Below are positions 8,097-30,849 of a DNA stretch of 32,000 nt, one piece after another (position 1 is the first letter of the stretch; each line of letters starts with the position of its first letter). The position numbers were made by a program, and so were the translations under genes. Source of the DNA: Candidatus Saccharimonadota bacterium. GTDB taxonomy: Bacteria > Patescibacteriota > Patescibacteriia > 2-12-FULL-60-25. The notes beneath the pieces are model-generated. The model worked only from the letters and a program-made list of their open reading frames with translations. It was not told the DNA's origin and ran no database searches. The DNA is taken from contig CP060222.1 of assembly GCA_023898425.1 (NCBI GenBank), positions 780,001 to 812,000 of the forward strand, given 5' to 3'.

Positions 8097-8181
8097 GTCC
8101 CTTTCCTACCTTAAATTTTAGATTTGAGCAAGTCTCAATAACCTCTCATTCACCTATATTATTCATCCCCGCAATACCTCG

Positions 8182-8378
8182 CCTCTCTATCCTCTCCATC
8201 CTCTCCGCGAAGCGAAGAGGTACACATCCCTAACCGTCATCTCGACCGACTGAGCATAGCGAAGAAGTGGAGAGATCTCGTAGTAACGGGCAGATGCCTC
8301 CACTCCTCCTTGCGTCGTCGGTCGGCATGACGGGGGTGTCACCCTTCGTTCACACGGAGGGTAGGGAGGATAACGAAG
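8182..8378 (+). repeat. Composite interspersed intergenic repeat, copy A (one 31-bp subrepeat)
   Basis: Shares ordered modules with copies at 9716, 16026 and 21091. The modules are cctctc.atcctctcc, hairpin cctctccgcgaagcgaagagg, cgtcatctcgaccgactgagcatagcgaagaagtggagagatc, cagatgcctccactcctcct, tgcgtcgtcggtcggcatgacg and cttcgttcacacggagggtagggaggataacgaag. Confidence 0.85.
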
Positions 8379-8382
8379 CTAG

Positions 8383-9672: not shown

Positions 9673-9715
9673 AGCGCATAGAGTACTGAGCCAACAGATA
9701 ACCATCAAGCCTTAG

Positions 9716-9972
9716 CCTCTCGATCCTCTCCTTACCTCTCCGCGTAGCGAAGAGGTACACAGCCCTAACCGTCATCTCGACCGACTGAGCATAGCGAAGA
9801 AGTGGAGAGATCTCGTAGCGACAGGCAGATGCCTCCACTCCTCCTTACGTCGTCGGTCGGCATGACGGGGCGGGATGCGTCGTCGGTCGGCATGACGGGC
9901 GGTGCTTTGTCATCGATTGACAGTGAGGCGTGTAACCCTTCGTTCACACGGAGGGTAGGGAGGATAACGAGG
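9716..9972 (+). repeat. Composite interspersed intergenic repeat, copy B (two 31-bp subrepeats plus a unique insert)
   Basis: Same module order as copy A. The subrepeat cgtcgtcggtcggcatgacggg occurs twice. An extra segment ctttgtcatcgattgacagtg carries a tgtca/tgaca inverted repeat. Confidence 0.85.
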
Positions 9973-10003
9973 CCGGGGTGATTGAGTTATATTGAGAATA
10001 GTG

Positions 10004-14072: not shown

Positions 14073-14099
14073 AAAAAAGCCCCATCAAAAGACAGGGCT
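14073..14099 (-). terminator. Weak rho-independent terminator after the 14144..15772 gene
   Basis: On the minus strand: agccc, 12-nt loop, gggct, followed by TTTTTT. The stem is short. Confidence 0.4.
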
Positions 14100-14143
14100 C
14101 TCATTCAGTAGTGTGACTCACGAGTTAAGTGAATCTAAAAGAG

Positions 14144-15772
14144 CTAACGACCGAGGTTCATCCCGCCGATCGTGATGATCAAGCCCGGATCAAAACGGGT
14201 TTGGGCACCATCGTTCAAGCGACGATCGGCATGATCAGCGACGCCAATCACACCTGACACCATCACAAATGGCGACCATCCTCGTTCACGCCAGGTATAA
14301 CCCACGTCGAGACGCAAGCCTCGTTGCCGCAGTTGGTACCAAGTACCATTTTGTTCCGCCAATTCTCCGTTACCGGAGTAGCGATGGCCAAAATGTGCAT
14401 TCGCTCCGAGGAGCAAATGACCTGCGGCGACGCCGAGCAGACCGACGCGATAATGCACCTGCCCTTGAACGGGGACATGCACACCGTCACGAAGACCAGC
14501 GCCTGCATCAACACCTCCAAGAAGGTAAAGATGAGGGACAAGCCGAATCGTGAGCGCGAGTCCGAGGCCAAAAAACTTCGGCGATCTTGATCCAGCGTGC
14601 GCTACCAATTGGTAGTACGAGGTAGCGAAGGATGTCTCGACGATCAAGCCGACACGTCCTTCGTTTGTTCGACGACCGCCACGTGAGCGACGAAGCTCCG
14701 GCACCTGAATGCCCTGACGATCATCTCCGTTTGTTGACAAAGGTGACTGTCGTGAAGGTTCGTCACCTTCAGCATCAGTGCTGGATCCTGCGGCCGAATC
14801 CGAATGAGTAGTTACTTCAGAGGTCGTACAGGACAATCGTTCTGTCGTGCCCCCGATTTCGTACTCAATAAATTCTTGGCCGGGTCGGCATAGCTGAGTA
14901 CGCTGCGCTCGGTAGATGCCACGCACCATGACACGTACGTGTTCCAAGATGACGTGATCCATTTCGAGCGAATCTGCTCGCACTTGTCCAATCTCTCGAC
15001 GAAGATCTTCGATCTGCATACGAAGAGCTTGAAGATCTCCGACCTGTTCTCGAAGCGCTTCGATTTGTTGCGCTTGTGTCAGGTCAGCGGTGCGCATCTC
15101 GAGCATCGCCTGCCGAATCACTTCGGCAAGAATGACACCTTCGGGCGTCAAACAAACGCCGGGGTTGCGATCCTCATCCGGTGTACCGCCAGACCCACTA
15201 TTGGGCTCGACGAGGTTTTGGATGAGTGCAACGAAACGAGCGCGAGAAGGATTTGCTGTACGACCTTCGCCGTACCACACACCACCAAGTCGCTCACAAA
15301 GCGTCTGCGCAATCTGCGCACGACCATCGCGCGCTGCAGGACCTTCGCCCAAAATCGGTAGCGACGGAATGACATAGGTCAACGCCGTATTATCCACCGC
15401 TGGTGAGCTAGGTTCTTGCGTTACGACAACCGTCGTTGTTCGTCTCGTGGTCGTTCTTGTCGGACGACGCCGAGGCTGCTGCGTTTCTGCCTGTGGTGTT
15501 GCCACATGTGCAGGCACATTACTGCAGCTATTCGCCCCAATGATGTACATGGTAGCAGCCGTGATACGCGCAGGGTTACCTACACAATCAGGCTGACTCG
15601 CAACGCACTGAATGGCTGCCGTTGGATCTGCACATGCTTGCCCCAGTTGATTGAGACATGTCATCGCACAGTTATATGCAGCCACCTGATCTGCTTCGGT
15701 TTGAGCATGAGTCGTCCCCGTATGGGCCGCCCACGCCAGCACCACGCTGACCACGATGATTGTTTTTCTCAT
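14144..15772 (-). CDS. Secreted protein of unknown function, high GC; signal peptide, Cys-containing N-domain, coiled coil, beta-rich C-terminal domain
   Basis: AGGAG lies 7 nt before the ATG at 15772. The signal peptide is MRKTIIVVSVVLAWAAHTGTTHAQ. There is a Thr/Arg-rich linker and a heptad-like QAQQIEALREQVGDLQALRMQIEDLRREIG. The C-terminal roughly 170 aa show alternating hydrophobic periodicity. It is intact and markedly GC-richer than the neighbouring holB. Confidence 0.7.
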   Translation of the reverse strand: MRKTIIVVSVVLAWAAHTGTTHAQTEADQVAAYNCAMTCLNQLGQACADPTAAIQCVASQPDCVGNPARITAATMYIIGANSCSNVPAHVATPQAETQQPRRRPTRTTTRRTTTVVVTQEPSSPAVDNTALTYVIPSLPILGEGPAARDGRAQIAQTLCERLGGVWYGEGRTANPSRARFVALIQNLVEPNSGSGGTPDEDRNPGVCLTPEGVILAEVIRQAMLEMRTADLTQAQQIEALREQVGDLQALRMQIEDLRREIGQVRADSLEMDHVILEHVRVMVRGIYRAQRTQLCRPGQEFIEYEIGGTTERLSCTTSEVTTHSDSAAGSSTDAEGDEPSRQSPLSTNGDDRQGIQVPELRRSRGGRRTNEGRVGLIVETSFATSYYQLVAHAGSRSPKFFGLGLALTIRLVPHLYLLGGVDAGAGLRDGVHVPVQGQVHYRVGLLGVAAGHLLLGANAHFGHRYSGNGELAEQNGTWYQLRQRGLRLDVGYTWRERGWSPFVMVSGVIGVADHADRRLNDGAQTRFDPGLIITIGGMNLGR

Positions 15773-15970
15773 CGTAATTCTCCTTGTGAAGGTGCGGCCC
15801 ATCCGCAACCAATTCGCCCGGCACGCTTGTCATCGGAGGAGATAGACAAACAAACCGAGCAAATAGGGTGCGGATGTTCTCCAAACAAGCTCTTCTCATT
15901 TACGATAAGGAGTTGTGTGGACGTTGGTCTTTACCATTAAAATATGGTTTTTGTCAACCCCCGTAGCGAC

Positions 15971-15992
15971 ATCCCTCGACTGCGCTCGGGAT
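15971..15992. repeat. Short GC-rich hairpin (family 2: stem + tcgact.cgctc loop)
   Basis: atccc tcgactgcgctc gggat. It is nearly identical in loop and layout to cacccc tcgactttgctc ggggtg at 25929-25952. Confidence 0.6.
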
Positions 15993-16025
15993 GACGTCAG
16001 ACCGCCCACGGAATGACAGTAATAG

Positions 16026-16260
16026 CCTCTCGATCCTCTCCTGGCCTCTCCGCGGAGCGAAGAGGTACACTGCGGAACCCTTACCGTCATCTCGACCGAC
16101 TGAGCACAGCGAAGAAGTGGAGAGATCATCGCAGCACGGCAGATGCCTCCACCCTCCTTACGTCGTCGGTCGGCATGACGGGGTGGTGCTGCGTCGTCGG
16201 TCGGCATGACGAGGCGGTGTCACCCTTCGTTCACACGGAGGGCAAGGGAGGATAACGAAG
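16026..16260 (+). repeat. Composite interspersed intergenic repeat, copy C (two 31-bp subrepeats)
   Basis: Same ordered modules as copies A, B and D. It lies inside the high-GC island, between the 15772 gene start and the lipoprotein pseudogene. Confidence 0.85.
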
Positions 16261-16869
16261 CCAGGATGACAGCCCGTTAGCGAAAGGCGGAGAAAGCCTT
16301 AAAATCCTCTCTACAATCATTCTCCTTTGTTGCCTTTTCTGGGCAATATCAATAATGCGATGCTCTAAACTAGCGCCATTTACACGAATATCTTGAACAA
16401 TAAGACCTCTGGCAAACTGACATTCGTTGGTAGGTTCACCACGTTTTGGGTAATTGGTCACGACAGCGTATTGCTCATCACCGGCATAAAAACGCACAAG
16501 AAACTGCTTATCTTCTGGGATGTCTTTGGTGATACAGGTAAAGCCAAATAATGTTGACGGCTTGTCTATAGGTGTTTGAATATCACACTTGGCAAGCACT
16601 CGTGACAAATCCTGACACCATCTCTACAGACGTTACAGCGCTCCAAGAGCGATCAATCGTACCTGTGACCACTAAAGTACCCGTACAGTCTGGTTGTTTA
16701 TAGGTACAAGGTTTAATCTCGTCTAATACAACCAAATTTGCTGCTGGTACTGGTTCTGTTGATGTTACCGTTATTGGTTCATCTTTATCTAAAAAGCAGG
16801 TAACTCACCGCAACCAGATAATGTCGTAACAGCGATAATCGCGCAGAGCGAGGTAATGAGGTGTTTCAT
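16231..16869 (-). pseudogene. Lipoprotein of unknown function, low GC, two frameshifts
   Basis: The ATG at 16869 gives MKHLITSLCAIIAVTTLSGC (lipobox LSGC), then a stop after 27 codons. Adding one T at the T5 run continues as AFLDKDEPITVTSTEPVPAANLVVLDEIKPC... A second shift joins ORF 16231..16608. The 3' end runs into repeat copy C. Confidence 0.6.
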
Positions 16870-16914
16870 AATCTTTCTCTTGGTCTATCGAACCCGCAAT
16901 CACCTGTCAAAGCC

Positions 16915-16948
16915 TAAAACGCAAAACCCACCACGAGAAGTGATGGGT
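16915..16948 (-). terminator. Rho-independent terminator immediately after the stop at 16949
   Basis: On the minus strand: acccatcac, loop, gtggtgggt (9 bp with one G-U pair), followed by tttgcgtttt. Confidence 0.6.
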
Positions 16949-17547
16949 TCAGCAGTTGGTGCTCGCACCGAGGTGCGAGCAAGGAACGGATCTCAAGTCG
17001 TCGAGAACGACCGTGGCGTCGTAGACGCCGGCAGTGGTTGCCTCGACGTTGACGCCGGGGCGGTCGAACACCCGTAGTGGTGAGCCTTCTGCACCTGGGA
17101 TGAACACCTGGCGTATCCTGTCGTCAACACCGGGTGGTGACCGCCGGACTGCCGTTCGCCGAAGCGGACGTGGATGTGTCGGAAGGAGCCGACACCAGAT
17201 CGCAGACGAATCGTCTGGTCGTGCCGGCATCGCTCGATGCCGTGCCGACGCATCGGAGGCAGGACATCGCGTGACCATCCGATCGACGAATGCGACCGGA
17301 GCGAGCGTCCTCGCCACGGTGACGTGCGGTGGGCACTGACATCCATCCGACCCTGGGTCAATGCGCTGCCCCGGGCAGCGGATGGCCGGACAGGTGATCA
17401 CGCCGCTGTCGGGGTGATCACGCCGCTGTCGAGGGTTGCCATCCCGCTGTCGGGGCTTGATGAGGTCCGCGTCGCACCCGATGGGGTGCGGCGCCGGCAG
17501 ATGCGATGATGAGGGCCGCAGGATCGAGATCTGCTTACGTTGGTCAT
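16949..17547 (-). pseudogene. High-GC ORF of unknown function with unstable reading frame
   Basis: A strong SD (AAGGAGG) lies 5 nt before the ATG at 17547. The frame closes at 17398, inside a 20/21/21-nt tandem repeat. The best-looking coding frame then changes at least twice more. The last segment (VFDRPGVNVEATTAGVYDATVVLDDL) has very high third-position GC. Confidence 0.4.
17393..17454. repeat. Tandem repeat, three units of 20, 21 and 21 nt
   Basis: The units are ggtgatcacgccgctgtcgg, ggtgatcacgccgctgtcgag and ggttgccatcccgctgtcggg. The 20-nt unit breaks the frame that would otherwise read DSG(M/V)(A/I)T.. three times. Confidence 0.8.
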
Positions 17548-17706
17548 TTTGCCCTCCTTAGGGCAACGTCGAATCGTGCATTTCGACGCGAAACTTTGAA
17601 AGAACAGACTCATAAGACCACCTGGCATATTTTGTCTTCACACGCATTGACAGTGAATGATGTTTCACGCCCAATGCCTAAGAAGACGCTAATTCAACTA
17701 GAGGAT

Positions 17707-17735
17707 ATTGTACACTATTTATTTGACATTGTCAA
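17707..17735 (-). promoter_or_regulatory. Strong sigma70-type promoter for the 17547 gene
   Basis: On the minus strand: TTGACA (17730-17735), 17-nt spacer, TACAAT (17707-17712). The -35 box is half of the perfect palindrome TTGACA-T-TGTCAA (17723-17735). Confidence 0.65.
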
Positions 17736-17831
17736 GGTTTCTTCACCTTCCAACTATCGGTTCACCACGTATGTGATGGACTCATAGATGGAGGTGAAAT
17801 GTAGAATACACTCAAGCCTCACCCAGATTCA

Positions 17832-19031
17832 TCAGATACTACTGGACATACAGGCAGAGACGGTTTGCACGCCACGCGGCCGCCAGGCGCGATCACGTAT
17901 CGTGTCACCCGTCAACGCGATGCCGTTGAAGGTGTAGTGAAACCCGTTGTCGGACAAGTCCGATCCAACAGGCGGTAGCGTGATGAGACGTCCGTACTCC
18001 CACCACCGAGACAGGTTGTTGCGCATGCCGACCGGGTCGGTCCATCGCAGACGACCTGCGCTCGAACGAACCCGCCCCAGACGATGAGCTTTCACCACCG
18101 AAGGTGGGTTGATCGTTTCGACCAGTACGTTGCGTGAAGCCGGACAAGGCGGGGTTACCCACGTTGTCGAATTGCAATGGCTCGGTTCGGCAACGACGAC
18201 GCAGCTTTTGCTGCGCTGAGCTCGAACACTGAGGGTGCCACCCTCGGGAGGAGGCGAGACCGGTACGCATCCGCATCGTTGGTCGACGAGCCCGGTCGCG
18301 AGTCATCGTCCTCACCGTTGTGGCAAAGGGCGTCCGTTTCGTGGGGGCGCCTGAGGAACCGGCGTGCAGTCGTTGGAGCTGTGACTGTGGTCGTCGCAGT
18401 CACGGTGTTTGAGCACGTAGCCCTCAGGCTGCGTCACTGACACCTGAGTGTGACAGGTCGCCACTGACAGCCGAAGCCATCGTCGTCGTAGTCTCGTACC
18501 AGGTCGTTCCCGACGAGCAGTCGAACTTCTCGTCGGGATCGTTATCGTCACAGTCTCCCGTGACCAGAACCCAGCCGGGTCACAGACGCCGGTGGTGAAC
18601 ACCTGACTCTGTGTCCCACCAACACTGTCACCGTCGACATCACGGAAGCATGTGACCGGAGTCACACACGCCGCGAGGGCGACGCAGATGACCGACTGGT
18701 TGTTGCAGAAGAGCTGGCCTCTACCCGAGGGGCAACCCTGCGGGGTGCAGGCGTCGCCGATCTCGTCGAAGCGAGGGTCATTCTGACACGGGGCCGGCGG
18801 ACTGCTTTCGCAGACCTCACCGGGCTTCACTGCGCAGATGCCGGTGGTGCCGGAGGCGTCGCACACGAGGTGCGTCGATCCGTCATCGCACGAGGCATCG
18901 CAGTCGTTCGCATCCAGGACTTCTCCCGGCGTACAGTAGCGAACGACACCGTCGGGCGCGTCGTCGACCGGGCCTGTGCAGTTGAAGCCGAAGAGCGGCA
19001 GAGCTGCGACTAGAATCAGAAACTTCTTCAT
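17832..19031 (-). pseudogene. Secreted Cys-rich protein with MopE-like DxDGD / DCDDxD metal-binding-type repeats, multiply frameshifted
   Basis: AAGGAG precedes the ATG at 19031. The signal peptide is MKKFLILVAALPLFGF and the N-terminal domain has many Cys. The motif elements DVDGDSVGG, PGWV..GDCDDNDP, RDYDDDGFG, PEGYV..DCDD and ETDALCHNGEDDD occur consecutively but in different frames between about 18300 and 18640. A further open frame continues to the stop at 17832. Confidence 0.5.
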
Positions 19032-19213
19032 GATGTCTCCTTCCCCACTAACCCGTGAGGGGTGGGTGGGGATTGGGTTGATTGTTAAAGAACGAGAGGC
19101 GCTGCATACTTGCAACGTTTACCCCTCAATCTCATGACGACAGAGTCATCACGAGGTATTGGAGGCCCAGCAGGAAAGTTTTTCAACTCTCAACTGCTGG
19201 GCAGAAGACCAAA

Positions 19214-20619
19214 CTAATGTGCGAGGATCGCACCCGAGCCGAGGCGAAGGCCGAAGCCAATCATCCCAGCCACACCTGTGCGGTTCACGTAGTTGTGACC
19301 GCCGGACGTCGTGAAGATGTCCCAGGTGATGCGCTGCACGTCGACCCCGATACGGAAGTAGGGAACGGCCCTAAATCCTTCTCGAGGACGAGTGAGGTCG
19401 ACCGTGAAGGCCAACTCGGTCCGAAGACCGTTGCCTCGAGCGCCGTCGCCCGAACCGTTCGGGGCGCTGTTGCCCGTTGTGTAACGGACGAAGCCGCCGA
19501 GAAGATCGAGACGAAGGCGCGGCGCCAGAGTGATCTGAAGTCCAAGCGAGACAGAGCCTCGCGTGAACCGATCGACCGGGACGTAGTCCTGGATGGCCAG
19601 GCTTTCGTCACCGATGTTGCCACCACCGAACGAGCCACGAAGAACGAAGCCGACCCGATTGGAGGCGAACGGTCGCAGATTGATCTGCCCACCGATCTCG
19701 CCACAAACCAGCGAAGACTCGAGACCGCTTTGGCCCGCGCAGAGGTTGACGTCGACTTGGAAGTCGACGTTCTGCGACAGGAACTCGCCAACCGAACTTC
19801 CACCCGCACTCGGGGGGCACAGCTCGACACGACGAGCCGGAGTCGCAGCCTCCCATTCTTGGAAGGTGACGACGTCCATCTTGTCAGCGCACTCGAACCG
19901 ATAGTTCGTCTCGAGGTTGTCGTCGATCTGCCGCTGTTGCGCCGGGTCCACGTCCGGACAAAGCGCGTTGCGACCTTCTGGAGTGGCGTTGAACCACTCT
20001 TCGAAGATGACGTTGGGGTAGTTCGCGCTGCACATGTGCAGCCAGAGCGTACGCTCGTCTCTTTCTAGCCTCGCGACAAGCTCCTCGAACATCACCACGG
20101 TGACGTACTCACTCATGTCGATGTTGATCGTGTCACCTTGCCTTACCGACCCGTTAGGGACGGCGCAGAAGGTACCAGCCACGAACCGATGACCGGCCGC
20201 GTCGCGCAGGTGCCGAAGCCCCGATGGCGCAATGACAAGCGGAACGGTGTTAGGCGGACAAACCGCTTCACCACCGATACCGTACTCGGCAACACCGTAG
20301 TCGGTTTCGACCTCGCCGTGCTGACGGGAACCTTGACGTCCGCCAGAGAGGTGGCGTTGACGACGATTCGCCATGCCGTGGGAGGCGGCGGATCGTCGTC
20401 GATCACCACGGTTGTGGTGGTCTCACCAGGGCTGCAGTAGCCCTCCTCCTCGCACCAGGTGCGAGGATTGGCCGGAATCGGCATCACCGACGCATTGGGC
20501 GCCGATGCCGTGGGCGGTGGCTCGAACTCGTCAGCCTGCACGAACGCAGGCATCGAGAACGAACCAGTGATGACCATCATGACGATGACCATCTTGAAAA
20601 ACTTGATTTGAAAGGACAT
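19214..20619 (-). pseudogene. Secreted protein paralogous (C-terminal domain) to 14144..15772, one frameshift
   Basis: GGAGG precedes the ATG at 20619. The signal peptide MSFQIKFFKMVIVMMVITGSFSMPAFVQA is in one frame (ORF 20143..20619). The remaining 386-aa body (19214..20374) is in another frame, with the shift somewhere around 20300-20380. The C-terminus aligns with the 14144 protein (LGLQITLAPRLRLDLLGG versus LGLALTIRLVPHLYLLGG). Confidence 0.6.
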
Positions 20620-20760
20620 TTCTACTCCTCCCCACTACCGCGAGGGCCTGTGGGTGATGGGACGTTTTGGTAAACCGAGGATCAGATGTCATCGATTCTC
20701 CAGCCGTCCCGCAGCCTCGCAAAGGAGGATGCGGTGCAACGGAACGGCTACAGAATCTAT

Positions 20761-20805
20761 GAAAGGGCTATCAAGTTAACGAAAAGGGCTATCAAGTTAA
20801 CGAAA
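20761..20805. repeat. Tandem direct repeat (20 + 21 nt + partial) containing GTTAAC palindromes
   Basis: gaaagggctatcaagttaac, then gaaaagggctatcaagttaac, then gaaa. It starts about where transcription from the 20807-20834 promoter should initiate. Confidence 0.8.
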
Positions 20806-20806
20806 T

Positions 20807-20834
20807 AGTATACGCCAAAAACCCATTTTGTCAA
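20807..20834 (-). promoter_or_regulatory. Strong sigma70-type promoter for the 20619 gene
   Basis: On the minus strand: TTGACA (20829-20834), 16-nt spacer, TATACT (20807-20812). This implies a leader of roughly 180 nt. Confidence 0.65.
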
Positions 20835-20841
20835 GGGGCTT

Positions 20842-20903
20842 GTGACATAATGATTATGTATCTCAAAATAGACTATTTGAGACCAATCATTATTTCTTGT
20901 CAC
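20842..20903. repeat. 62-bp imperfect palindrome upstream of the island promoter
   Basis: gtgaca-taatgatt-atgta-tctcaaa-atagacta-tttgaga-cc-aatcatta-tttct-tgtcac. Three nested arm pairs (6, 8 and 7 bp) are all perfectly complementary. Confidence 0.7.
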
Positions 20904-20988
20904 GCCCTCCATCTCGTGAATATTGTGTGAAGTTACAACCGAACACTTCTCTTCTTTCTTAACTACACTATAGCAAATATCAGGTTAT

Positions 20989-21016
20989 TTGTCAAGTTTC
21001 TGTTTTGCATTATACT
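20989..21016 (+). promoter_or_regulatory. Candidate plus-strand promoter with no ORF downstream
   Basis: TTGTCA (20989-20994), 16-nt spacer, TATACT (21011-21016). The next elements are the terminator hairpin at 21044-21070 and repeat copy D. Confidence 0.4.
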
Positions 21017-21043
21017 GATTCTTCTCTAGAATTAGTAAATAGC

Positions 21044-21070
21044 AAAAACCTCCACTAAATGGAGGTTTTT
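21044..21070. terminator. Bidirectional rho-independent terminator
   Basis: A5, stem acctcca (21048-21054), loop ctaaa, stem tggaggt (21060-21066), T4-5. On the minus strand it would end the 23227..21430 operon after repeat copy D. Confidence 0.7.
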
Positions 21071-21090
21071 GACTTCTGACGGTGTCTTCG

Positions 21091-21409
21091 CCTCTCGATC
21101 CTCTCCAGCCTCTCCGCGAAGCGAAGAGGTACGTTACTCGTCATCTCGACCCATGTCTCGAGCAACGCCGAAAGAGACTGAGCATAGTGGAGAGGTACGC
21201 TACTCGTCATCTCGACCGACTGAGCATAGCGAAGAAGTGGAGAGATCTCGTAGTGATGGACAGATGCCTCCACTCCTCCTTGCGTCGTCGGTCGGCATGA
21301 CGAGGCGGTGCTGCGTCGTCGGTCGGCATGACGGGGTGGTGCTGCGTCGTCGGTCGGCATGACGGGGTGTCACCTTCGTTCACACGGAGGGCAAGAGAGG
21401 ATAACGAAG
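21091..21409 (+). repeat. Composite interspersed intergenic repeat, copy D (three 31-bp subrepeats, duplicated 5' module)
   Basis: Same module order as the other copies. The gaggtac..ctcgtcatctcgacc module occurs twice. The 31-bp unit tgcgtcgtcggtcggcatgacg.gg.ggtgc occurs 2 full times plus one partial (21281-21373). Confidence 0.85.
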
Positions 21410-21429
21410 CCGGGGTGATATCTTTTAAA

Positions 21430-22045: not shown

Positions 22046-23227
22046 CTATTTAATCATTTCGGTTGTTGTGGCTGTGCCAAGAGTTATTTTTGTTTGAAAG
22101 ACCTCTTCTTTGCGTTTGCCGTAAAACGTAATACTTACACCAGGGCGATAATCCATAAGTAAGCTCGCAAGATCTACCGAACCATCAAGCACATCGCGTT
22201 CTACACGTTGTATGATATCACCTTCGACCATATTACCAGAAGCGGGGCTGTCGCTTTTTACCGCAGCGCCAAGACGCTTGTTTGCTTTCAATAAAAAGCC
22301 GAGCGGTTCTGCCACGGTTGATGTTGTCGTCGGTAAAATGGTTTGCGCTAGATCGATACCACGTACACCGAGCGTCGCTCGCTGGATAAATCCATTAGCG
22401 GTGATCGAATTAATATCGCTTGCAACGGTACCAACAGGCAATGCGAGCCATGAGCCAAGTGATTTATCAAATTGATCGATCATACCTACAACACGACCAG
22501 TGGCATCACGAAGTGGAGCGCCTTGCAAAGGGGCATCAAGCGGAGAAATAACGCGAAGTCTTCTTGTAGAGATTTCAGAACTTTGCCAACCAGGCGATAA
22601 AGCAAGATCGCTCAATGTAACAGGTACGAATATAGTAGGGGCAATTTCTGCATAGACGGTAGCACCTTCTTCGATGAGCTCTGGGCGAACAAAGCTTGCT
22701 GCCGTCATCGTGATAGCATCTGCTTTAAGATAAACGTATCCCGTAGATTTGTCGTGAATGATCTTTTTTATTGATACGAGACCTCCGCGAACCTGCAAAG
22801 CAAGAAGACTCGTTGATTCTCCTTCGATGATCGAATATGGAACAACAAACCAACCATCGCTTGTAACGGCAATAGCATGCCCAATAGTCTGCTCGCCTTG
22901 AATAATCCCCTCGGCTTCGATAGCTGTAGAACGCCGAATAATATTTACCGTACTCACCGGCTGACTTGTGAGCTCGCTTGGTAATGCGCTTAGTAATGGA
23001 CGACTTGAGATTGGCACAACCTCAACCTGCGGCACTTGAGGAATAGGCGTTGTGCTCGTTGAACCTAAAACAAGTTCGTTGATTTTTGCGTCTAGCTTTT
23101 GGATAGCTGGGGCAAGCAAAATAAAATAGAGAGCTCCAGAAATAAGGCCACTCGCAAATAATGCGACAATAGCACTTACCACCGCATGGTCACGAGAAAA
23201 AAAAGACGGCTCTAAGCGTTGTTTCAT
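22046..23227 (-). CDS. Membrane-anchored HtrA/DegP-like trypsin-fold + PDZ protein lacking catalytic His and Ser
   Basis: N-terminal TM helix. The protease-like core reads LQGAPLRDATGRVVGMI where GNSGGPL..G..IGI is expected, and no His occurs at the TNxHV position. The C-terminal PDZ-like segment reads LGVRGIDL..GDIIQRVERDVL. Confidence 0.55.
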   Translation of the reverse strand: MKQRLEPSFFSRDHAVVSAIVALFASGLISGALYFILLAPAIQKLDAKINELVLGSTSTTPIPQVPQVEVVPISSRPLLSALPSELTSQPVSTVNIIRRSTAIEAEGIIQGEQTIGHAIAVTSDGWFVVPYSIIEGESTSLLALQVRGGLVSIKKIIHDKSTGYVYLKADAITMTAASFVRPELIEEGATVYAEIAPTIFVPVTLSDLALSPGWQSSEISTRRLRVISPLDAPLQGAPLRDATGRVVGMIDQFDKSLGSWLALPVGTVASDINSITANGFIQRATLGVRGIDLAQTILPTTTSTVAEPLGFLLKANKRLGAAVKSDSPASGNMVEGDIIQRVERDVLDGSVDLASLLMDYRPGVSITFYGKRKEEVFQTKITLGTATTTEMIK

Positions 23228-23254
23228 GACGCCATGATACCACGAAGTCGTTTT

Positions 23255-24016
23255 TTATGCCCAGCGCGAAAATAAGATGACGGCAAAAAAACACGCCAAG
23301 AATAACGACGCTTCAATGAGGCCACTTCTTCGTTTTGGTTTTGGTTCGTGACTATATCTGCGTGCACGAAACGGAAATGCAAAGAGAAGCGCTGCCATAA
23401 CTCCGCTAGCGATAACATCAAGAGGCAATATCATAGCAAAGATACCTGCGTGCAATCCTACAAGACCACCCATAAATAACCAGCGTTTATTTTGTTCTTT
23501 GTCAGCCGTATGATGAGAGGTGCAGGCAAATGTTAAAACACCATATGCGAGACCAAAAAACGGACTCATCCAAAACGGAAAACGAATGAAGGCTTGCAAA
23601 CCTGATAGTGTCATCGTCAAAAAGAACATCCCTAATGGAATAAGTGCGAGGTTAAGTCTCGATAATCCATGTACGGGATACTTACTTGGCTCTACGCCTA
23701 AAAGATAAAGCAGTTCTAATGTGAGGTAAGCAAGTCCACTCACAAAAAGACTAAATAGTATTTGTTGTGAACCGCTCTCTACAAGTAATGCTGCACCACC
23801 AGCGATTAGAAAGGTCACAACCGGTGGGATTACCTTTATCCATTCACGCCATGCAAGACGACGGTAACCAATGAGTGCCGCCGATACAATAAATACGAGC
23901 GCCGAAGCAATATATAAAAGAGGAAACGTTCTCCAAGCAATAAATTGCCACCGACTCAAAAACAAGATGCTGATGGCAGCAAGAAGCGGCAGTGATCGTA
24001 AAAGCAAGAATATCAT
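23255..24016 (-). CDS. Polytopic integral membrane protein, unknown function
   Basis: 253-aa ORF with about 7-8 hydrophobic helices. It overlaps the upstream permease gene by 4 nt. Confidence 0.6.
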   Translation of the reverse strand: MIFLLLRSLPLLAAISILFLSRWQFIAWRTFPLLYIASALVFIVSAALIGYRRLAWREWIKVIPPVVTFLIAGGAALLVESGSQQILFSLFVSGLAYLTLELLYLLGVEPSKYPVHGLSRLNLALIPLGMFFLTMTLSGLQAFIRFPFWMSPFFGLAYGVLTFACTSHHTADKEQNKRWLFMGGLVGLHAGIFAMILPLDVIASGVMAALLFAFPFRARRYSHEPKPKRRSGLIEASLFLACFFAVILFSRWA

Positions 24017-25072: not shown

Positions 25073-25522
25073 ATGCTTTTTACCGAGAACCGTAAGGCGC
25101 GGCACGAGTATCAATTTCTCAAAACCATTGAGGCTGGCTTGGTATTGGAGGGCCACGAGGTTAAAGCGATACGCGAAGGTGGAGCAAAGCTCGATGGGAG
25201 TTATCTTAAAATACTTGGTGGTGAACTCAAGCTTGTCGGTAGCCATATTCGGCCCTATAGCAAGGCAGCGCATCGCGAGACCATCGACCCAAACCGAACA
25301 ATTACCGTACTCGTAAGCAAGAAAGAATTGCGAGAATTAGCAGAAAAATCAGCAGAAAAAGGTTTGACAATGGTGCCTATTTCGTTCTACCCTGTCGGGC
25401 GACGCATCAAGCTCTCATTTGCGATTGCCAAGGGTAAACAAGCCCATGACAAACGTGATGCCTTAAAACAGCGAGACATTGAGCGCACCGTCCGTCGCGT
25501 TATGCGTGGCGAAGACGAATAA
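25073..25522 (+). CDS. smpB: SsrA-binding protein SmpB
   Basis: 149 aa. Matches include NRKARHEY, EAGLVL.G.EVK, K.KLSFAIAKGKQ.HDKR and a basic tail. The tmRNA gene starts 2 nt after the stop. Confidence 0.9.
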   Translation: MLFTENRKARHEYQFLKTIEAGLVLEGHEVKAIREGGAKLDGSYLKILGGELKLVGSHIRPYSKAAHRETIDPNRTITVLVSKKELRELAEKSAEKGLTMVPISFYPVGRRIKLSFAIAKGKQAHDKRDALKQRDIERTVRRVMRGEDE

Positions 25523-25523
25523 C

Positions 25524-25930
25524 GGGGATGAATCAGCATCGACGTTTAGTCCATTCACATCTTTGCAAGCCGAGCCTGTAAAACCGCTCGTAAATATCGT
25601 TTTACACATGACAATTGCCAACGTCATTTCCAAGGTTCGCGAAACGGTTGCTCACGCATTCCGTGCTCCAGCCTTTGTTCCGACCTTCGCTTAACGCGAA
25701 TACCTTCGGACCGGTCCTTGCTTAAGCGCCTTCTTAAGCAAACGGCTGTTATACTTCGAGGCTAGCTCCAAGTGCCCATGCTCGGCACAAGGAGGACAGG
25801 CTTGAGCATCCATCTAGATGATCTTGTTCTTTTATCCCATCTAGACTAGCTCTTAGAAAGAACTAAGCTTGTGAGCGAAAAGGGTGATTAGGTTAGACGG
25901 ACGGGGGTGCGATACCCCCCATCTCCACCA
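25524..25930 (+). ncRNA. ssrA: tmRNA (SsrA)
   Basis: The 5' GGGGAUG pairs with the 3' CAUCUCC-A-CCA and includes the G3-U alanine identity pair. The T-arm is GGGGG UGCGAUA CCCCC. An internal tag frame ends in ..PAFVPTFA followed by TAA at 25692-25694, with a possible resume codon GCC at 25617. Confidence 0.85.
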
Positions 25931-26532: not shown

Positions 26533-26592
26533 GCTCTTGCATTTTTTTTGAAAATAACCTAACCTTCGGCCTCATCACACCCATCCGAGTTT

Positions 26593-26787
26593 ATGAAGAT
26601 TAAAACTACAAAAGCCATCGCTAAGCGCATTATCAAAACCAAGAGCGGCAAGCTCTTGAAGCGTAAAGGCGGCCAAGGCCACTTCAATAGCCGCGAAAGC
26701 GGTACAGTAACCCGCAATAAGCGTCGCGATATTGCCGTTGCAGACCAATTTGTCCGCACCATGAAGACGCTCACCCCGCATAACTAA
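26593..26787 (+). CDS. rpmI: Ribosomal protein L35
   Basis: 64-aa basic ORF beginning MKIKTTKAIAKRIIKTKSGKLLKRK, in the conserved infC-rpmI-rplT order. Confidence 0.85.
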   Translation: MKIKTTKAIAKRIIKTKSGKLLKRKGGQGHFNSRESGTVTRNKRRDIAVADQFVRTMKTLTPHN

Positions 26788-26806
26788 CCTATCCTCTGAA
26801 TAACGT

Positions 26807-27145
26807 ATGCCAAGAGTCAAACGCGGTACCCAACATGTAAAACGTCGCAAAAATATCCTTGCCCGTACTAAAGGCATGATGTGGGGTCGCAAATCCAAAC
26901 TTAAACTCGCAAAAATCGCTGCTGTAAAGGCAGGTAAAAATGCGTATGTCGGTCGCAAGCTCAAGAAGCGTGAAAATCGCGGCTTACAGCAAATGCGCAT
27001 CGGCGCTGCTTCTCGTGAACTCGGCGTGAGCTACTCAAAGCTCATGGGTGATCTCAAAAAACGTGATATCTCATTGAACCGTGTGGTTCTTTCAGAAATC
27101 GCTGCAAAGCATCCAAACATTTTTGCAAAAATTGCAAAGGGTTAA
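26807..27145 (+). CDS. rplT: Ribosomal protein L20
   Basis: 112 aa. Matches include MPRVKRGTQHVKRRKNIL..TKG and the RKLKKRENRGLQQMRI pattern of L20. Confidence 0.9.
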   Translation: MPRVKRGTQHVKRRKNILARTKGMMWGRKSKLKLAKIAAVKAGKNAYVGRKLKKRENRGLQQMRIGAASRELGVSYSKLMGDLKKRDISLNRVVLSEIAAKHPNIFAKIAKG

Positions 27146-27152
27146 TCCCAAT

Positions 27153-27187
27153 AAAAAAAACACCTCGATCATCTCGAGGTGTTTTTT
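27153..27187. terminator. Bidirectional rho-independent terminator between convergent genes
   Basis: A8, stem cacctcga (27161-27168), 5-nt loop, stem tcgaggtg (27174-27181), T6. Confidence 0.8.
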
Positions 27188-27204
27188 ACTATGAAGCTTT
27201 TTAC

Positions 27205-29070
27205 TCACCGAAAAGGTTTGGAGCTTCTCCACAAAATCTTCAACCCCGGTTTTCGTAACAAGCTTTTTATTTTTAATGACTTAATGAATACAGGGATAAA
27301 ACGTTTTACCACTTTATCATAACGCGCTTCTGCCTCTTGATGCGTTCCACGTTTAATAAAAGCGATATCTTTTTTATAGGCAGGACCCAAATCAAACGTC
27401 TTAATGAGATATTCTAAGACCTCAGCTCTCGCCTCACGTGTAGGGACGCTGTAAAGCTCAGTGGTGATCCATTCTGTAGGAGTAGGCTTATGGTTCACTA
27501 TTGCTGACATGAGCTGATCAGCGATATTAGATGCTCGATCTTCGTCTGCTCCATTCCTCTTTTGATTATCACGATCTACCTTTGGATATTTTTTTGCAGA
27601 CTCAGGAATACTGGCTTTGGGTGACTTGGTTGATGGCGTGACATAACTACCATCGCTCTGATTTGAATCCATTTCTATAATTCTACGACGTAGACTTTCT
27701 GTTTTCGATACGCGCTGCTCTTGAGGCTGATGCATCTCGCTTATAGGCTCTTGTTTTTGAAAACTTTGTTCGAATTGAGCAGAAAGATCAGTAAGGGTTG
27801 GAGGCTCGTCAAGATACTCATCGATAGACTCCCAACTTACAGGGTTACTAGTAAAAGCTTCTGTATAATCATCGTTGTCTTTTTCTCTATCTAACATCTC
27901 GCCATTTGGCGTCATGGGGATTGCTGGTGATTTTTGTGCTTTAGGTTCGCTTGCAAGAAACGCTTGTTGTTGCTGTTCTTCTGCTACCAATTTATCCGCA
28001 AACGTATTAAGTCGATCCATCCGAAGCTCTTTTGCCAAAGGAGGGACTCCGCGAGGTTTTGAAAGAACTACTGGATTTTTCTTTGCACTTTTTGCTCGCT
28101 CTGAAACAAGTCCGTGCAATGTGCGAGCGCGATCAATGTCTTGCTTATCGCGTGTTGGAATACCGTGCTCTAATAATCTCGTCGCCCGCTGATAGACACG
28201 TTGCGCGATATCGCCACCCATATCAGATACGCCCGTAGCTTCTGCGCGATCTAGTTGATAGGCATGCAAAGCATAAGCCGTAGCAATATCTTCTGTGCCA
28301 AACAATCTCTGAAGTGCCGCTCGGTTAATAGGGTGAAAACGCTTATCTTCAAGAAAATTCTTTGCTTTCGCAAAACGTTGTGATGCCGTAGCCTTTTCTT
28401 CTGGGGACATCTGCTGAATGACTTTTTGCCACTTTAACCGATAGCTCTTTGCATCAAAAGGCTGCTCAGAACGTATCATGTTATTTCTTTGACCAATCGC
28501 AAGTGTTGAGCCCTTAAAAGAAGGGGCGCTCGTTGGAGATCCTCCCGACATTGATACTGATTTACGCTCAACCGCGAGTCTTCCAACGGGTTGTGCACGA
28601 ACACCCGTCTCTTCTTGAGGATATCTGTTAGAAGGGCTCTGCTGTATTCGAAGAGACTCGAGACTCTTTTCAATAGCAAGTAATTCTTTTGCCCATTGTT
28701 CTATTTCTTCACGTTTAGCTAGGCCCAATAAACCACGATAGCGCGAAAATTCTTTTTGGATATATGGGTTAGGTTCTTGGTCGGCATATACCAACGCGAG
28801 TTGAAGCTTATACTCATCTAACCCCGCTTTAAACAAACGTGAACGCAGACTTAAACGTTGACTCTCGAGAGCGTCGATATTTTGCTGACGCCTCTCTAAA
28901 CGTTCTGCGTCTTCAGCAGCCGTTTTCTTTAAGTCGAGCGAAGTAATGATGTCTCCCCCATCATCTACAAATATTGGTGACGCTGGTCTGATTCTCACAC
29001 CTGAAACCTCTTCCCATACGGGAGAATCTGCCTGATGACGTCTTCTTGAAGACGGTACTTCGCTTTTCAT
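27205..29070 (-). CDS. Large charged orphan protein (621 aa), no signal peptide or TM
   Basis: Intact ORF rich in K/E/R/Q/A, with helical or disordered character. It contains the short motif RGVPPLAKEL, shared with the divergent neighbour. Confidence 0.6.
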   Translation of the reverse strand: MKSEVPSSRRRHQADSPVWEEVSGVRIRPASPIFVDDGGDIITSLDLKKTAAEDAERLERRQQNIDALESQRLSLRSRLFKAGLDEYKLQLALVYADQEPNPYIQKEFSRYRGLLGLAKREEIEQWAKELLAIEKSLESLRIQQSPSNRYPQEETGVRAQPVGRLAVERKSVSMSGGSPTSAPSFKGSTLAIGQRNNMIRSEQPFDAKSYRLKWQKVIQQMSPEEKATASQRFAKAKNFLEDKRFHPINRAALQRLFGTEDIATAYALHAYQLDRAEATGVSDMGGDIAQRVYQRATRLLEHGIPTRDKQDIDRARTLHGLVSERAKSAKKNPVVLSKPRGVPPLAKELRMDRLNTFADKLVAEEQQQQAFLASEPKAQKSPAIPMTPNGEMLDREKDNDDYTEAFTSNPVSWESIDEYLDEPPTLTDLSAQFEQSFQKQEPISEMHQPQEQRVSKTESLRRRIIEMDSNQSDGSYVTPSTKSPKASIPESAKKYPKVDRDNQKRNGADEDRASNIADQLMSAIVNHKPTPTEWITTELYSVPTREARAEVLEYLIKTFDLGPAYKKDIAFIKRGTHQEAEARYDKVVKRFIPVFIKSLKIKSLLRKPGLKILWRSSKPFR

Positions 29071-29143
29071 AGTGTCAGTATATCATGACTTATCCACTAG
29101 TATAAAATATATAGTGAATTAATTTGCTATACTGCGATTATCT
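29071..29143. promoter_or_regulatory. 73-bp divergent promoter region with two extended -10 boxes (TGnTATACT) and essentially leaderless starts
   Basis: On the minus strand, TGATATACT (the -10 at 29077-29082) ends 6 nt before the ATG at 29070. On the plus strand, TGCTATACT (the -10 at 29128-29133) ends 10 nt before the ATG at 29144. Neither start has an SD. Confidence 0.5.
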
Positions 29144-30805
29144 ATGCCACGTAAACTCAAAAAATTGGAGACAGGCCCAATAGAAAACACACCTGTGATG
29201 GAGAATCCAGCAACAATGCCTGCTGCAAAAAAAGAACTCATGAGCAAAAGCCGTAAAAACGCTCTTGAGGCCGAAGCTGATAAGCTTGCAACAGAAGAAC
29301 GTACCGCTGCACGCGATGAACGCGCCGTTGAAAGCATTCGTAAACAAATGAATGAATCTAACGAGGATCGCACGAATCCAGGTGCGGTCTTTGAAGCACG
29401 TAGAGAAGCAGCTAAAAAAACCCAGGAGGAGCAGATCGCTCAATCAGGTCTCTCACAGTCACAGTTCTTAAAGATGCTAGAGAGCTATCCCTTAGAAGAA
29501 CAAACCGAGCGCTTTAGCGGTACAAAAAATTTCTTCCGTCGTCTCGCTGGCCAAGCTTGGGCCGGTAAAAACCCTGCCGAACTTAACGCTCTTATGAAGC
29601 GCTATACCGAAGCTGAATCGATCATGAACGAAGACAAAAATAAAGCTCTTCGACAAATGCAAGATGCGCCTAGCAGTCGGCCAACACGTAGTGGCAATAT
29701 GCCAACTCGTGGTGATAACGCTGAATTAGTTAATAACACTCCGATGGAGATGGATAAACCTGTCGCTGCAAACCTAGAGTCAAGAAATGAAGAGCTCGCT
29801 ATCTCTTTTGATGACGCGGTTAACCATCAGGCACAGCTTGAAGCAGCCTATAACGAGCTCTTAACGAAAGATAAGAAGAGTGCCAATATCCTTCTTCAGA
29901 CAGTTGCTCGTGCACGTTATGAAAAGTTTGGCTCAACGCTAGGCACTGAAGATGAGCAAAGTACAACAGCTTCAAAAACAAAACGTGGTGGGTCACAAAC
30001 AGGTGGCTTTATCCCTGGTACACAAATTTCTGGCAAAGTAGGCAGCGCTTCAGGTGCGCTTTATGATCAATTACAGAAACTTGATACGCAATTCATCAAT
30101 GAAGAGACGCCTAATGCTTATAAAGAAGCTGCCAAAGAGACAGTCGAAGAAGCTGAATGGACTAATGCCATTAATAAAGCAAAGGCAAAACTCGCAAAAA
30201 CTGAAGTCGCAAAACCTGTAGTGACGTCCACAAAAACTGAGACCATCGACTCACCAGTTGATCAACGCAATGAACAACAGGATCGTGAAGTTGCTTGGCT
30301 AGCAGCCTTCTCCAAAGAAGATGCTGCCAAGGCCTATAAGCTTATGGTGCCTGATGCATCAGCCGCTACACTTAAAGCTGTTACAGCTCGTGCAATGGCA
30401 GACACCTATCGAGCAATGGCTACCGAAGAACAAATGATAGAAGCAAAGACAAAAAGCCGCGTCACAAAAGCTGATAAAGAACGTCTCAAAGCGGTCAAAG
30501 CGCAGCTCGCCGCTGTCAAAGCATTTGCAGCCACTGTTACTGTTGAACTTACAGAAGAAGACCTACTTGATGTAGAAGATAGCGAAGAAACGAAGATGGC
30601 CCAGGTATCTGCACAAGGGCGTGAAGAAATGACCGCCTTTGAAGCTCGTAAGGCCGAGAACGACGCAAAACAAGCTCGCTTAAAGGAGCAAGATCGTCAA
30701 GAAGCCCAAAAAACCGCTAAAGCCGTTCGATCAAGAGCGGTACCGCCACTCGCAAAGTCTTTACAAGGCACAATAAAACCAAGATCAAATAAGAAGGCTG
30801 GCTAA
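29144..30805 (+). CDS. Large charged orphan protein (553 aa), no signal peptide or TM
   Basis: Intact A/K/E/Q-rich ORF. The C-terminal RAVPPLAKSL motif matches the neighbour at protein level but not at DNA level. Confidence 0.6.
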   Translation: MPRKLKKLETGPIENTPVMENPATMPAAKKELMSKSRKNALEAEADKLATEERTAARDERAVESIRKQMNESNEDRTNPGAVFEARREAAKKTQEEQIAQSGLSQSQFLKMLESYPLEEQTERFSGTKNFFRRLAGQAWAGKNPAELNALMKRYTEAESIMNEDKNKALRQMQDAPSSRPTRSGNMPTRGDNAELVNNTPMEMDKPVAANLESRNEELAISFDDAVNHQAQLEAAYNELLTKDKKSANILLQTVARARYEKFGSTLGTEDEQSTTASKTKRGGSQTGGFIPGTQISGKVGSASGALYDQLQKLDTQFINEETPNAYKEAAKETVEEAEWTNAINKAKAKLAKTEVAKPVVTSTKTETIDSPVDQRNEQQDREVAWLAAFSKEDAAKAYKLMVPDASAATLKAVTARAMADTYRAMATEEQMIEAKTKSRVTKADKERLKAVKAQLAAVKAFAATVTVELTEEDLLDVEDSEETKMAQVSAQGREEMTAFEARKAENDAKQARLKEQDRQEAQKTAKAVRSRAVPPLAKSLQGTIKPRSNKKAG

Positions 30806-30807
30806 TC

Positions 30808-30835: not shown

Positions 30836-30849
30836 ATTTGATTAAAATA

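Follow-up and report, generated by a model that had tools for sequence, protein, structure and literature searches.

The window analyzed here is a 32,000-nucleotide (nt) stretch of a Candidatus Saccharimonadota genome (contig CP060222.1, positions 780,001 to 812,000), and its middle part holds a GC-rich cluster of genes for secreted proteins between the housekeeping gene holB and a Wzz-like gene. We favor, with a probability of roughly 0.6, the reading that this is an ancestral, clade-specific cluster of surface proteins that evolves fast and recombines, and not a recent foreign island. The analysis shows composition, synteny, narrow distribution, recombination, and the folds as predicted; display at the surface, insertion into a membrane, what causes the GC excess, and the origin of the frameshifts as errors are inferred. 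Relatives are cited below as contigs or lineages (L numbers) and homologous proteins by P numbers; the same-species contigs include L001, L002, L008, L010, L011, and L016. By comparison with intact relatives the cluster resolves into five gene slots, each with its gene body on the minus strand:

14144-15772, minus strand: g4, an intact open reading frame (ORF) of 542 residues for a secreted protein
~16299-16869, minus strand: g3b, a low-GC lipoprotein gene with at least three frame changes in the assembly
16991-17547, minus strand: g3a, a GC-rich lipoprotein gene with many frame-breaking indels in the window
17832-19031, minus strand: g2, a Cys-rich lipoprotein-like gene, frame broken from 18579 downstream
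19214-20619, minus strand: g1, a gene for a secreted protein, split into ORFs 20143-20619 and 19214-20374

Composition of the GC-rich block

A scan of the window in 500-nt steps of sequence places GC content at 0.52-0.67 across 14.0-20.5 kb against 0.39-0.47 on both sides, with dips inside the block at 16.3-16.9 kb and 17.55-17.8 kb. Overall, 14144-20619 has a GC content of 0.569 and the flanks 0.446, the 500-nt windows of the flanks having a standard deviation of 0.029 and a maximum of 0.516. It is at third codon positions that GC is raised most. GC at these positions (GC3) is 0.71-0.77 in g1 and g2, 0.71-0.86 over g1 to g3a, 0.49 in g4, and 0.40 in g3b, while the 13 neighboring genes compared, IF3 and RRF among them, lie mostly at 0.33-0.43 with SmpB at 0.48. 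First and second codon positions are raised less, with GC1 of ~0.62-0.67 and GC2 of ~0.48-0.52 in cluster genes against ~0.51-0.60 and ~0.30-0.47 in most neighbors, of which the TIM gene has a high GC1 (0.64).

The Karlin delta* distance of the GC-rich blocks from the flanks is 187 x 10^-3. Equal-sized flank chunks compared with the rest, which served as the null, give a mean of 56 and a maximum of 85 on the same scale. The GC-normalized tetranucleotide correlation between block and flanks is 0.47, where the null minimum is 0.68, and the anomaly is more than a shift in GC alone. A first-pass annotation of this DNA had described a sharp change of composition, which GC, GC3, delta*, and tetranucleotides all bear out; its five counts on single 60-nt lines (68, 60, 63, 50, and 47 %) come to 0.70, 0.60, 0.63, 0.50, and 0.47 when recomputed. 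It had also named uniform oligonucleotide composition as an outcome that would speak against it, and the delta* values show that composition is not uniform.

Distribution and synteny in relatives

Homologues of the two large secreted proteins are few. Among 5.8 billion clustered proteins g4 has eight, all on Patescibacteria-type contigs, and a profile search of 1.84 billion representatives recovers 4 clusters; g1 has nine homologues. For neither protein was a homologue outside the clade found in these two collections of 5.8 and 1.84 billion proteins. The sole named source of a homologue is a "Patescibacteria group bacterium" metagenome-assembled genome (MAG). In a scan of GTDB genomes only one species genome, the STL-PAT1 MAG, carries a relative of g4, and no paper on STL-PAT1 was found in the literature, while a scan of JGI metagenomes adds four further short contigs with g4 relatives. 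Viral contigs searched with the g4 alignment and plasmids searched by tblastn gave no relatives, and the cluster has no match in the E. coli genome, as expected.

Gene order is shared wherever it can be read. In L003, L004, L005, and L007 it runs SmpB, AI-2E-type permease, 253-residue protein, PDZ-like protein, Wzz-like protein, g1, g2, g3, g4, holB, and BNR, followed, where the contig extends further, by RRF, GlyRS, M16, and TIM. L006 and L013 carry g1 to g4 followed by holB and BNR, L009 carries g1 to g4, and g4 adjoins holB in L008 and L016-L018. The composition of relatives was compared only where both cluster and flank were available, and there the clusters have a GC content of 0.60-0.67 against 0.50-0.54 in their own flanks and a GC3 of 0.60-0.94 against 0.45-0.65. 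In L003 and L004 delta* between the cluster and its own flank is 184-187, and between the cluster of the window and those of L003 and L004 it is only 30-42. These are distant comparisons, as the holB, BNR, and Wzz proteins are 76-85 % identical across lineages with synonymous divergence (dS) from 1.7 to undefined. No tRNA target lies at the cluster, the nearest tRNAs being at 6.1-6.3 kb, and besides a composite repeat element described below there are no flanking direct repeats.

The first-pass annotation had proposed that the genes were acquired horizontally from a high-GC donor, and it allowed that they would count as native if orthologues of this composition occupied the locus throughout the lineage. 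Every relative found has the same genes at the same locus with the same contrast, which therefore speaks against recent acquisition. Nor was holB seen directly beside the Wzz-like gene in any relative, an arrangement that the annotation had suggested looking for. On comparative sequence evidence, the cluster appears to be ancestral and native to the clade, a lineage-specific feature and not a recent insert.

Sequence divergence and recombination

The cluster genes diverge much faster than their neighbors. Whole g4 and the large g1 ORF show 27-51 % amino acid identity over the same genome pairs in which holB, BNR, and Wzz keep 76-85 %. Divergence also comes in tracts. Against L008, g4 has 49 mismatches inside 14400-15600 and none in the adjacent 400 nt on each side, and the flanking genes (14000-10515, ~3.6 kb) have about 5. 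The same sharp-edged 1.2-kb divergent tract of g4 is seen with L016. In terms of dS against L008, g4 stands at 0.10 and holB, BNR, RRF, and GlyRS at 0-0.012. The ratio of nonsynonymous to synonymous divergence (dN/dS) of g4 in this comparison is 0.18, which indicates that g4 is functional and under purifying selection.

Mosaic structure is also evident in g1. The window and L011 are 99-100 % identical over most of 16.9-21.2 kb, with the exception of a 300-nt patch of g1 (20334-20034) that is only 61-84 % identical to L011 and matches the L010 allele instead. Across strains the C-terminal 200 residues of g1 are 92-100 % conserved, and the N-terminal halves can barely be aligned. Between species, L013 differs from the window in its housekeeping proteins (83-84 % amino acid identity, dS 1.7-1.9), whereas its g1 C-terminal domain, a predicted β-barrel discussed below, is 92 % identical (dS 0.35). 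L004 and L013 have holB and BNR proteins that are 99 % identical, yet the g1 barrel of L004 is only ~30 % identical to the window type (L013 443-1897 compared with L004 5666-7108). Because the identities of barrel and housekeeping genes conflict in this way, L013 g1 is a chimera that joins an N-terminus of the L004 type to a barrel of the window type. Barrel classes thus segregate independently of the species tree, and segments of the cluster genes move horizontally within the clade into the homologous locus. What survives of the horizontal transfer in the first-pass annotation is this exchange of alleles and segments among strains and sister species; the acquisition of a foreign island does not. 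In the low-GC lineage of the window, g1 to g3a may themselves be imports from GC-richer relatives.

We set aside a diversity-generating retroelement as the origin of the variability, as neither the ORFs examined nor the repeat search showed a reverse transcriptase or a template repeat, and the differences include indels and whole-domain swaps and are not adenine-specific.

Predicted structure of g1 and g4

Both large proteins begin with a signal peptide that can be read from the sequence (...THAQ/TE in g4 and ...PAFVQA/DEF in g1). In g4 this is followed by a helical Cys-containing N-domain, a T/R/P-rich linker, a long coiled coil, and a conserved C-terminal domain that is predicted to form an 8-stranded β-barrel (residues ~374-540). 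Intact g1 is 462 residues long in P0009 (98 % identical) and 465 in P0010, and joins a variable mosaic N-terminal half to a conserved C-terminal half with a predicted 8-stranded β-barrel. The AlphaFold2 model of g4 was made from a 9-sequence alignment and has a mean predicted local distance difference test score (pLDDT) of 57.6. It contains the helical N-domain, disordered T/R/P-rich linkers, a 74-residue helix at 216-289, and, from residue 374 on, eight or nine long strands whose block pLDDT reaches 87. The AlphaFold2 model of g1, made for P0009 (mean pLDDT 64), has an N-terminal part of mixed structure followed by eight strands, each 13-20 residues long, at 279-455. The barrel strands reach a pLDDT of ~80-87 in these predictions from shallow alignments.

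Searched against the PDB with Foldseek, both models find outer-membrane barrels as nearly all of their top-ranked matches, with target-normalized template modeling (TM) scores of 0.5-0.62 and best E values of ~1e-4 to 1e-5 for the two together. For g4 the matches are NspA (0.62), OmpW (0.61), Ail (0.57), OmpX (0.51), and the transmembrane domain of OmpA (0.51), with E values of ~1e-4 to 5e-3, and for g1 they are OmpW (0.60, root-mean-square deviation 4.7), the N-terminal domain of OprF (0.60), and NspA and Ail (both 0.59). Most strands alternate a hydrophobic face (KFLLLIL, LLGVAAL, VFVVLAQ) with a glycine or polar face, and the predicted barrel domains are 16-17 % Gly. A sequence search of the PDB with the g4 profile found nothing. 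Between g4 and g1 there is no homology by BLASTP or by profile-profile comparison of the alignments with hhalign (probability 2 %), so that, as far as these comparisons reach, the two barrels do not appear to be demonstrable paralogues. No report of outer-membrane protein (OMP)-type barrels in Patescibacteria was found in the literature; the "beta-barrel" of a preprint on the pilus of the candidate phyla radiation refers to Ig-like pilin domains and is unrelated to the barrels of g1 and g4.

The lipoproteins g2, g3a, and g3b

The g2 protein is Cys-rich with an N-terminal lipoprotein-like signal, and is 402-408 residues long when intact (L011, P0019). Several of its orthologues pass the threshold of PF11617, the MopE-type family, with 2-5 repeats (29.6 bits in L003, 53.2 in L004, and 82.0 in L009). 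L011 g2, the intact counterpart of the g2 in the window, falls below that threshold, and the NCBIfam repeat model scores 21.9 bits on window-type g2 where the cut-off is 41. Outside the clade, g2 matches only MopE-related proteins of Myxococcota, Bacteroidales, and Flavobacteriaceae, and these matches do not extend beyond the short repeat (20-34 % of the query, E values of 1e-4 to 1e-7). The C-terminal half of g2 is without known relatives.

When intact, as in L011, g3a encodes 203 residues with the lipobox LSGC. The product of g3b is a low-GC lipoprotein beginning MKHLITSLCAIIAVTTLSGC... with the lipobox ...TTLSGC, and it is the orthologue of the GC-rich g3 of L003, with 45 % identity by tblastn with L003 g3 and by three-frame translation. 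The GC3 of this one family is 0.40 in the window and 0.94 in L003. In the cluster ORFs and their intact orthologues, searches of Pfam, NCBIfam, and PHROGs found no enzyme, integrase, transposase, or phage family, PF11617 in some g2 proteins being the only match. The family searches are in agreement with the first-pass annotation, which had seen signal peptides or Cys-rich sequence, no nameable enzyme family, and no integrase, transposase, or phage gene.

Frame breaks in the assembly

The frame breaks in g1, g2, g3a, and g3b are most likely consensus indel errors, judging from the comparison with near-identical contigs. In g1 one G is missing at ~20355, and restoring it gives one continuous frame. 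The 3′ part of g2 differs from L011 by 13 substitutions and by 34 indels, of which 32 have a length that is not divisible by three. The segment 16990-17609, which is g3a with ~60 nt of 5′ leader, differs from L011 by 65 indels (46 deletions and 19 insertions in the window) and 37 substitutions. The spacer between the Wzz-like gene and g1 (20620-21234, 615 nt) shows 8 one-base indels, several in short homopolymer runs, against 2 substitutions, and g3b lacks single nucleotides of L016 at three positions within 60 nt. Next to these regions, the window and L011 do not differ at all over 455 nt in the 5′ part of g2 and 264 nt in that of g1. Because indels outnumber substitutions beside identical sequence, the pattern looks like one of consensus error and not of pseudogene evolution. 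Intact ORFs of the broken genes are present in L010, L011, and L016, which are 99-100 % identical elsewhere, and L010 and L011, two independent assemblies, agree with each other against the window. The errors could have come from long-read data or from strain-mixed regions.

The first-pass annotation had called the module partly decaying, which is not supported in view of the excess of indels, the intact ORFs in near-identical contigs, and a g4 that is intact at a dN/dS of 0.18. Its lipoprotein pseudogene is indeed low in GC and frame-broken, but is probably not a decayed gene, since the C-terminus of g3b is intact in L016 (...NDCRQGF*), as in the L003 orthologue.

Compared with contigs that are 99-100 % identical, 20620-21234 and 16904-18579 show many single-base deletions, several in short homopolymer runs and in intergenic DNA as well, which suggests that the assembly is of uneven quality outside conserved genes. 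Relatives are affected as well. In the JGI contigs L004 (13767-14322) and L005 (13767-14320) the RRF gene falls into two ORFs, but it is intact in L006 and L003, so that frameshift artefacts also occur in the assemblies of relatives.

Proposed function and proposed source of the GC excess

The reading favored here is of a locus for two Sec-exported proteins (g1 and g4) and two or three lipoproteins (g2, g3a, and g3b), in which most genes have a promoter-like box of their own in an AT-rich spacer. Each of g1 and g4 would consist of a fast-diverging Cys-containing N-terminal ectodomain on a conserved Gly-rich amphipathic C-terminal domain, with a coiled coil added in g4. The barrel would anchor or insert these proteins in a membrane-like lipid layer, and the variable ectodomain would be displayed for contact with host cells or the environment under diversifying pressure. 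The Cys-rich lipoproteins may also mediate contact, and the producer is likely an episymbiotic bacterium. The locus is a recombination hot spot in which tracts and whole domains are swapped between strains and sister species, and recombination would keep its GC content high, through GC-biased conversion, repeated import from GC-richer relatives, or both.

That the GC excess is not passively retained donor composition follows from synonymous sites that are saturated (dS >1.2 or undefined) at a GC3 that is nevertheless high, and something therefore keeps the locus GC-rich. Recombining bacterial genes tend towards higher GC3 (PMC4450053), and since the locus is itself a recombination hot spot, recombination is tentatively favored as the maintaining force. 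The gradient in GC3 (0.40 in g3b, 0.49 in g4, and 0.71-0.86 in g1 to g3a) hints weakly at older residents that are drifting towards the composition of the host and at g1 to g3a as newer imports from GC-richer sister species. Translational selection for high GC3 was set aside, as the translation-factor genes IF3 and RRF have a host-like GC3 of 0.37-0.40.

Several points weigh against this reading. Neither g1 nor g4 has a sequence-profile match to OMP families in searches of Pfam, NCBIfam, and PDB sequences (e.g., PF13505, PF01389, and PF03922), and both lack a terminal aromatic residue, ending in ...GGMNLGR and ...SGAILAH. The barrel models rest on 9-sequence alignments with an overall pLDDT of 58-64, in which closure is a prediction only. 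Patescibacteria are described as monoderm (PMC11665869; also PMC8871954), which leaves the destination of a membrane barrel unexplained. Allele differences in g4 carry no GC bias (18-20 compared with 23-25), and the values for g3b (0.40) and g4 (0.49), near the host GC3, argue against a uniform force on the whole locus. It is also possible that g1, g2, g3a, and g3b are undergoing real pseudogenization. Fragmented type I restriction-modification genes at 1-6010 of the window, with HsdR split over 5111-6010, 4870-5190, and 4055-4822, an HsdM fragment at 2530-2904, and an HsdS fragment at 1013-1450, represent either real erosion or the same indel noise, and the accessory regions of the assembly are accordingly either error-prone or truly eroding.

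A bolder proposal goes further than the reading favored here, and we hold it to be doubtful. Monoderm, probably episymbiotic Patescibacteria would export two unrelated barrel families that act outside their own cytoplasmic membrane, for example by inserting into the outer membrane of a Gram-negative host as an anchor or conduit, or that reveal an unrecognized outer lipid layer, with the locus made hypervariable and GC-rich by intense recombination between strains and species.

Alternative explanations

A recent island from an unrelated high-GC donor, now decaying, would explain the strong contrast in GC, GC3, and oligonucleotides, the frame-broken genes of this assembly, and a host-type repeat and low-GC gene interleaved with GC-rich blocks. 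We consider it very improbable. The same genes, locus, and contrast recur in all relatives found, including lineages whose housekeeping dS is saturated, g1 and g4 have no homologues outside the clade among 5.8 and 1.84 billion proteins, and integrase, tRNA target, and flanking direct repeats are all lacking. Decay is further contradicted by the intact copies in strains that are 99-100 % identical and by the dN/dS of g4. It is barely conceivable that the cluster is instead an artefact of chimeric assembly, or contamination that became fused to a Patescibacteria contig. Local indel noise, short-read contigs that break at repeats, and the joining of L011-type and L010-type segments of g1 at ~20334-20355 with a frameshift nearby would fit such an artefact, but more than 10 independent assemblies (ENA, JGI, NCBI, and Logan) show the same junctions between cluster and housekeeping genes, L008 and L016 span g4 to holB at 95-98 % identity, and L011 spans the repeat on the Wzz side through g3a.

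Two further explanations address the composition itself. The ancestor of the clade may have acquired the cluster once, long ago, from a GC-rich diderm donor (e.g., Myxococcota-like), with GC since held by selection on proteins or mRNAs. OMP-type barrels and Cys-rich repeats of the MopE type are typically found in diderm bacteria, which are often GC-rich, and such an origin would account for both, for the MopE-related nature of all g2 matches outside the clade, and for a signature that is unlike that of the host and common to clusters of different lineages. However, those g2 matches are confined to the short repeat, g1 and g4 have no outside relatives, and saturated synonymous sites cannot passively keep the composition of a donor; moreover g3b and g4 have drifted to or towards the host GC3, so that selection would not be uniform. 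We regard this ancient acquisition as unlikely, though worth keeping in view. Alternatively, the GC excess could be a by-product of amino acid composition (Gly, Ala, Arg, Pro, and Cys), for which the somewhat raised GC1 and GC2 and the Gly content of the barrels (16-17 %) can be cited. This is scarcely credible, as the largest excess is at third positions (0.71-0.94 across cluster genes and lineages against 0.33-0.65 outside) and GC3 differs widely within the one protein family of g3b (0.40 in the window, 0.94 in L003).

Comparison with known systems

The C-terminal domains of g1 and g4 resemble small 8-stranded OMPs and adhesins of Gram-negatives (OmpW, NspA, Ail/OmpX, and the transmembrane and N-terminal domains of OmpA and OprF) in predicted fold and in their Gly-rich alternating faces. 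They differ in having no sequence kinship with them, an N-terminal passenger of 270-370 residues, no terminal aromatic, and a host described as monoderm. Type Va autotransporters have the same order of signal peptide, variable passenger, linker, and C-terminal β-barrel, and the barrels of EspP, NalP, Hbp, and AIDA-I are among the Foldseek matches of g1 and g4 at lower TM-scores. Their barrels have twelve strands, however, against the eight predicted in g1 and g4, which also have no PF03797 match and no predicted helix threading the barrel. β-barrel assembly (BAM) machinery is not known in the phylum. On present profile and structure comparisons g1 and g4 appear to lie outside the OmpA, OmpX, and OmpW families and outside the type Va autotransporters. 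For g2, the orthologues of L003, L004, and L009 are like MopE-related proteins (PF11617 and the NCBIfam acidic double-disulfide repeat), and L011 g2 is below the thresholds of both; the function of the PF11617 motif is itself only putative.

Considered as a whole, the cluster is similar to classical genomic islands in its sharp GC and oligonucleotide contrast and its accessory-type surface genes, but it occupies one locus clade-wide and lacks their integrase, tRNA target, direct repeats, and sporadic distribution. With recombining loci for variable surface antigens (PMC4450053 for GC3) it shares mosaic alleles, sharp tracts, a conserved anchor with a variable exposed part, and raised GC3, although its GC3 excess of +0.3 to +0.4 is far above the genome-wide effects of recombination described (PMC4450053). 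What would be new is a set of barrel-anchored variable surface proteins in an unexpected phylum, in two predicted families that no library names. The first-pass annotation had suspected an undescribed secreted module, and this suspicion was sound, PF11617 in some g2 proteins being the sole partial match.

Little is known of how Patescibacteria recognize and attach to their hosts. Unannotated surface proteins abound in their genomes (PMC11665869), and the locus is a compact candidate for host contact, with four to five genes that are hypervariable, recombining, secreted, and conserved in position. If the barrels are true ones, a textbook diderm architecture would be present in a phylum described as monoderm, and would offer a lead on host-membrane insertion or on envelope diversity. 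A GC3 excess of +0.3 to +0.4 that persists across saturated lineages also means that atypical composition here cannot be read as recent transfer, and the locus is a useful caution for the calling of islands.

Spacers, repeats, and neighboring genes

The spacers of the cluster and its Wzz side contain the following features:

14075-14102, minus strand: terminator-like hairpin between the g4 stop codon and the holB start
15952-15957, minus strand: TTGACA box in the spacer upstream of g4
16023-16260, no strand assigned: intergenic copy of the composite repeat, folding as a long imperfect hairpin
16924-16950, minus strand: terminator-like site after g3a
17707-17735, minus strand: promoter-like site of g3a
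20805-20995, minus strand: AT-rich spacer upstream of g1 with TTGACA-17-TATAGT and TTGACA-16-TATACT, strongly promoter-like
21043-21071: terminator-like hairpin on the Wzz side
21088-21410, no strand assigned: another copy of the composite repeat, at the Wzz-side boundary of the cluster

Minus-strand TTGACA boxes lie in AT-rich spacers at 15957, 16910, 17735, 20834, and 20995, and three of the five sit in sigma-70-like matches of 11/12. Terminator-like hairpins come after Wzz, g3a, and g4. The minus-strand gene bodies, the TTGACA spacers, and the interleaved host-type repeat and low-GC lipoprotein gene of the first-pass annotation were all reproduced. The spacer and 5′ end of g4 (15714-15961) are 83-91 % identical to L013 and L017-L019, and together with those of g3a (17543-17794) they keep 76-91 % identity to other species, in which holB and BNR DNA reaches only 74-77 % and the gene bodies have diverged much further. 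The ectodomains turn over, but the regions of promoter, leader, and signal peptide are conserved, and these spacers and 5′ ends could serve as recombination anchors.

The composite repeat is present in four copies in the window (8179-8380, 9713-9973, 16023-16260, and 21088-21410). It is modular, 210-340 nt long with 1-3 tandem 31-nt units, and in the one copy that was folded the minus strand has an RNA minimum free energy of -115.8 kcal/mol (z -9.0) and the plus strand one of -103.2 (z -7.2). A search of Rfam with the repeat gave no match. The same-species short-read contigs L001, L002, L008, L011, and L016 end in or near it, and it looks like a miniature inverted-repeat transposable element or a repetitive extragenic palindromic element. 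Across the window Rfam identifies only a transfer-messenger RNA (tmRNA) and two tRNAs, none of them in the cluster or the repeat.

Large conserved neighbors at 22046-24016 and 26575-31689 have no Pfam family either (a 393-residue PDZ-like ORF and ORFs of 253, 141, 621, 553, and 283 residues), so that unannotated content is not limited to the GC-rich cluster. Farther along, the tmRNA gene (25524-25930), for which ARAGORN predicts a seemingly long tag of 25 residues, ANVISKVRETVAHAFRAPAFVPTFA, starts within 2 nt of the end of smpB (25073-25522, plus strand).

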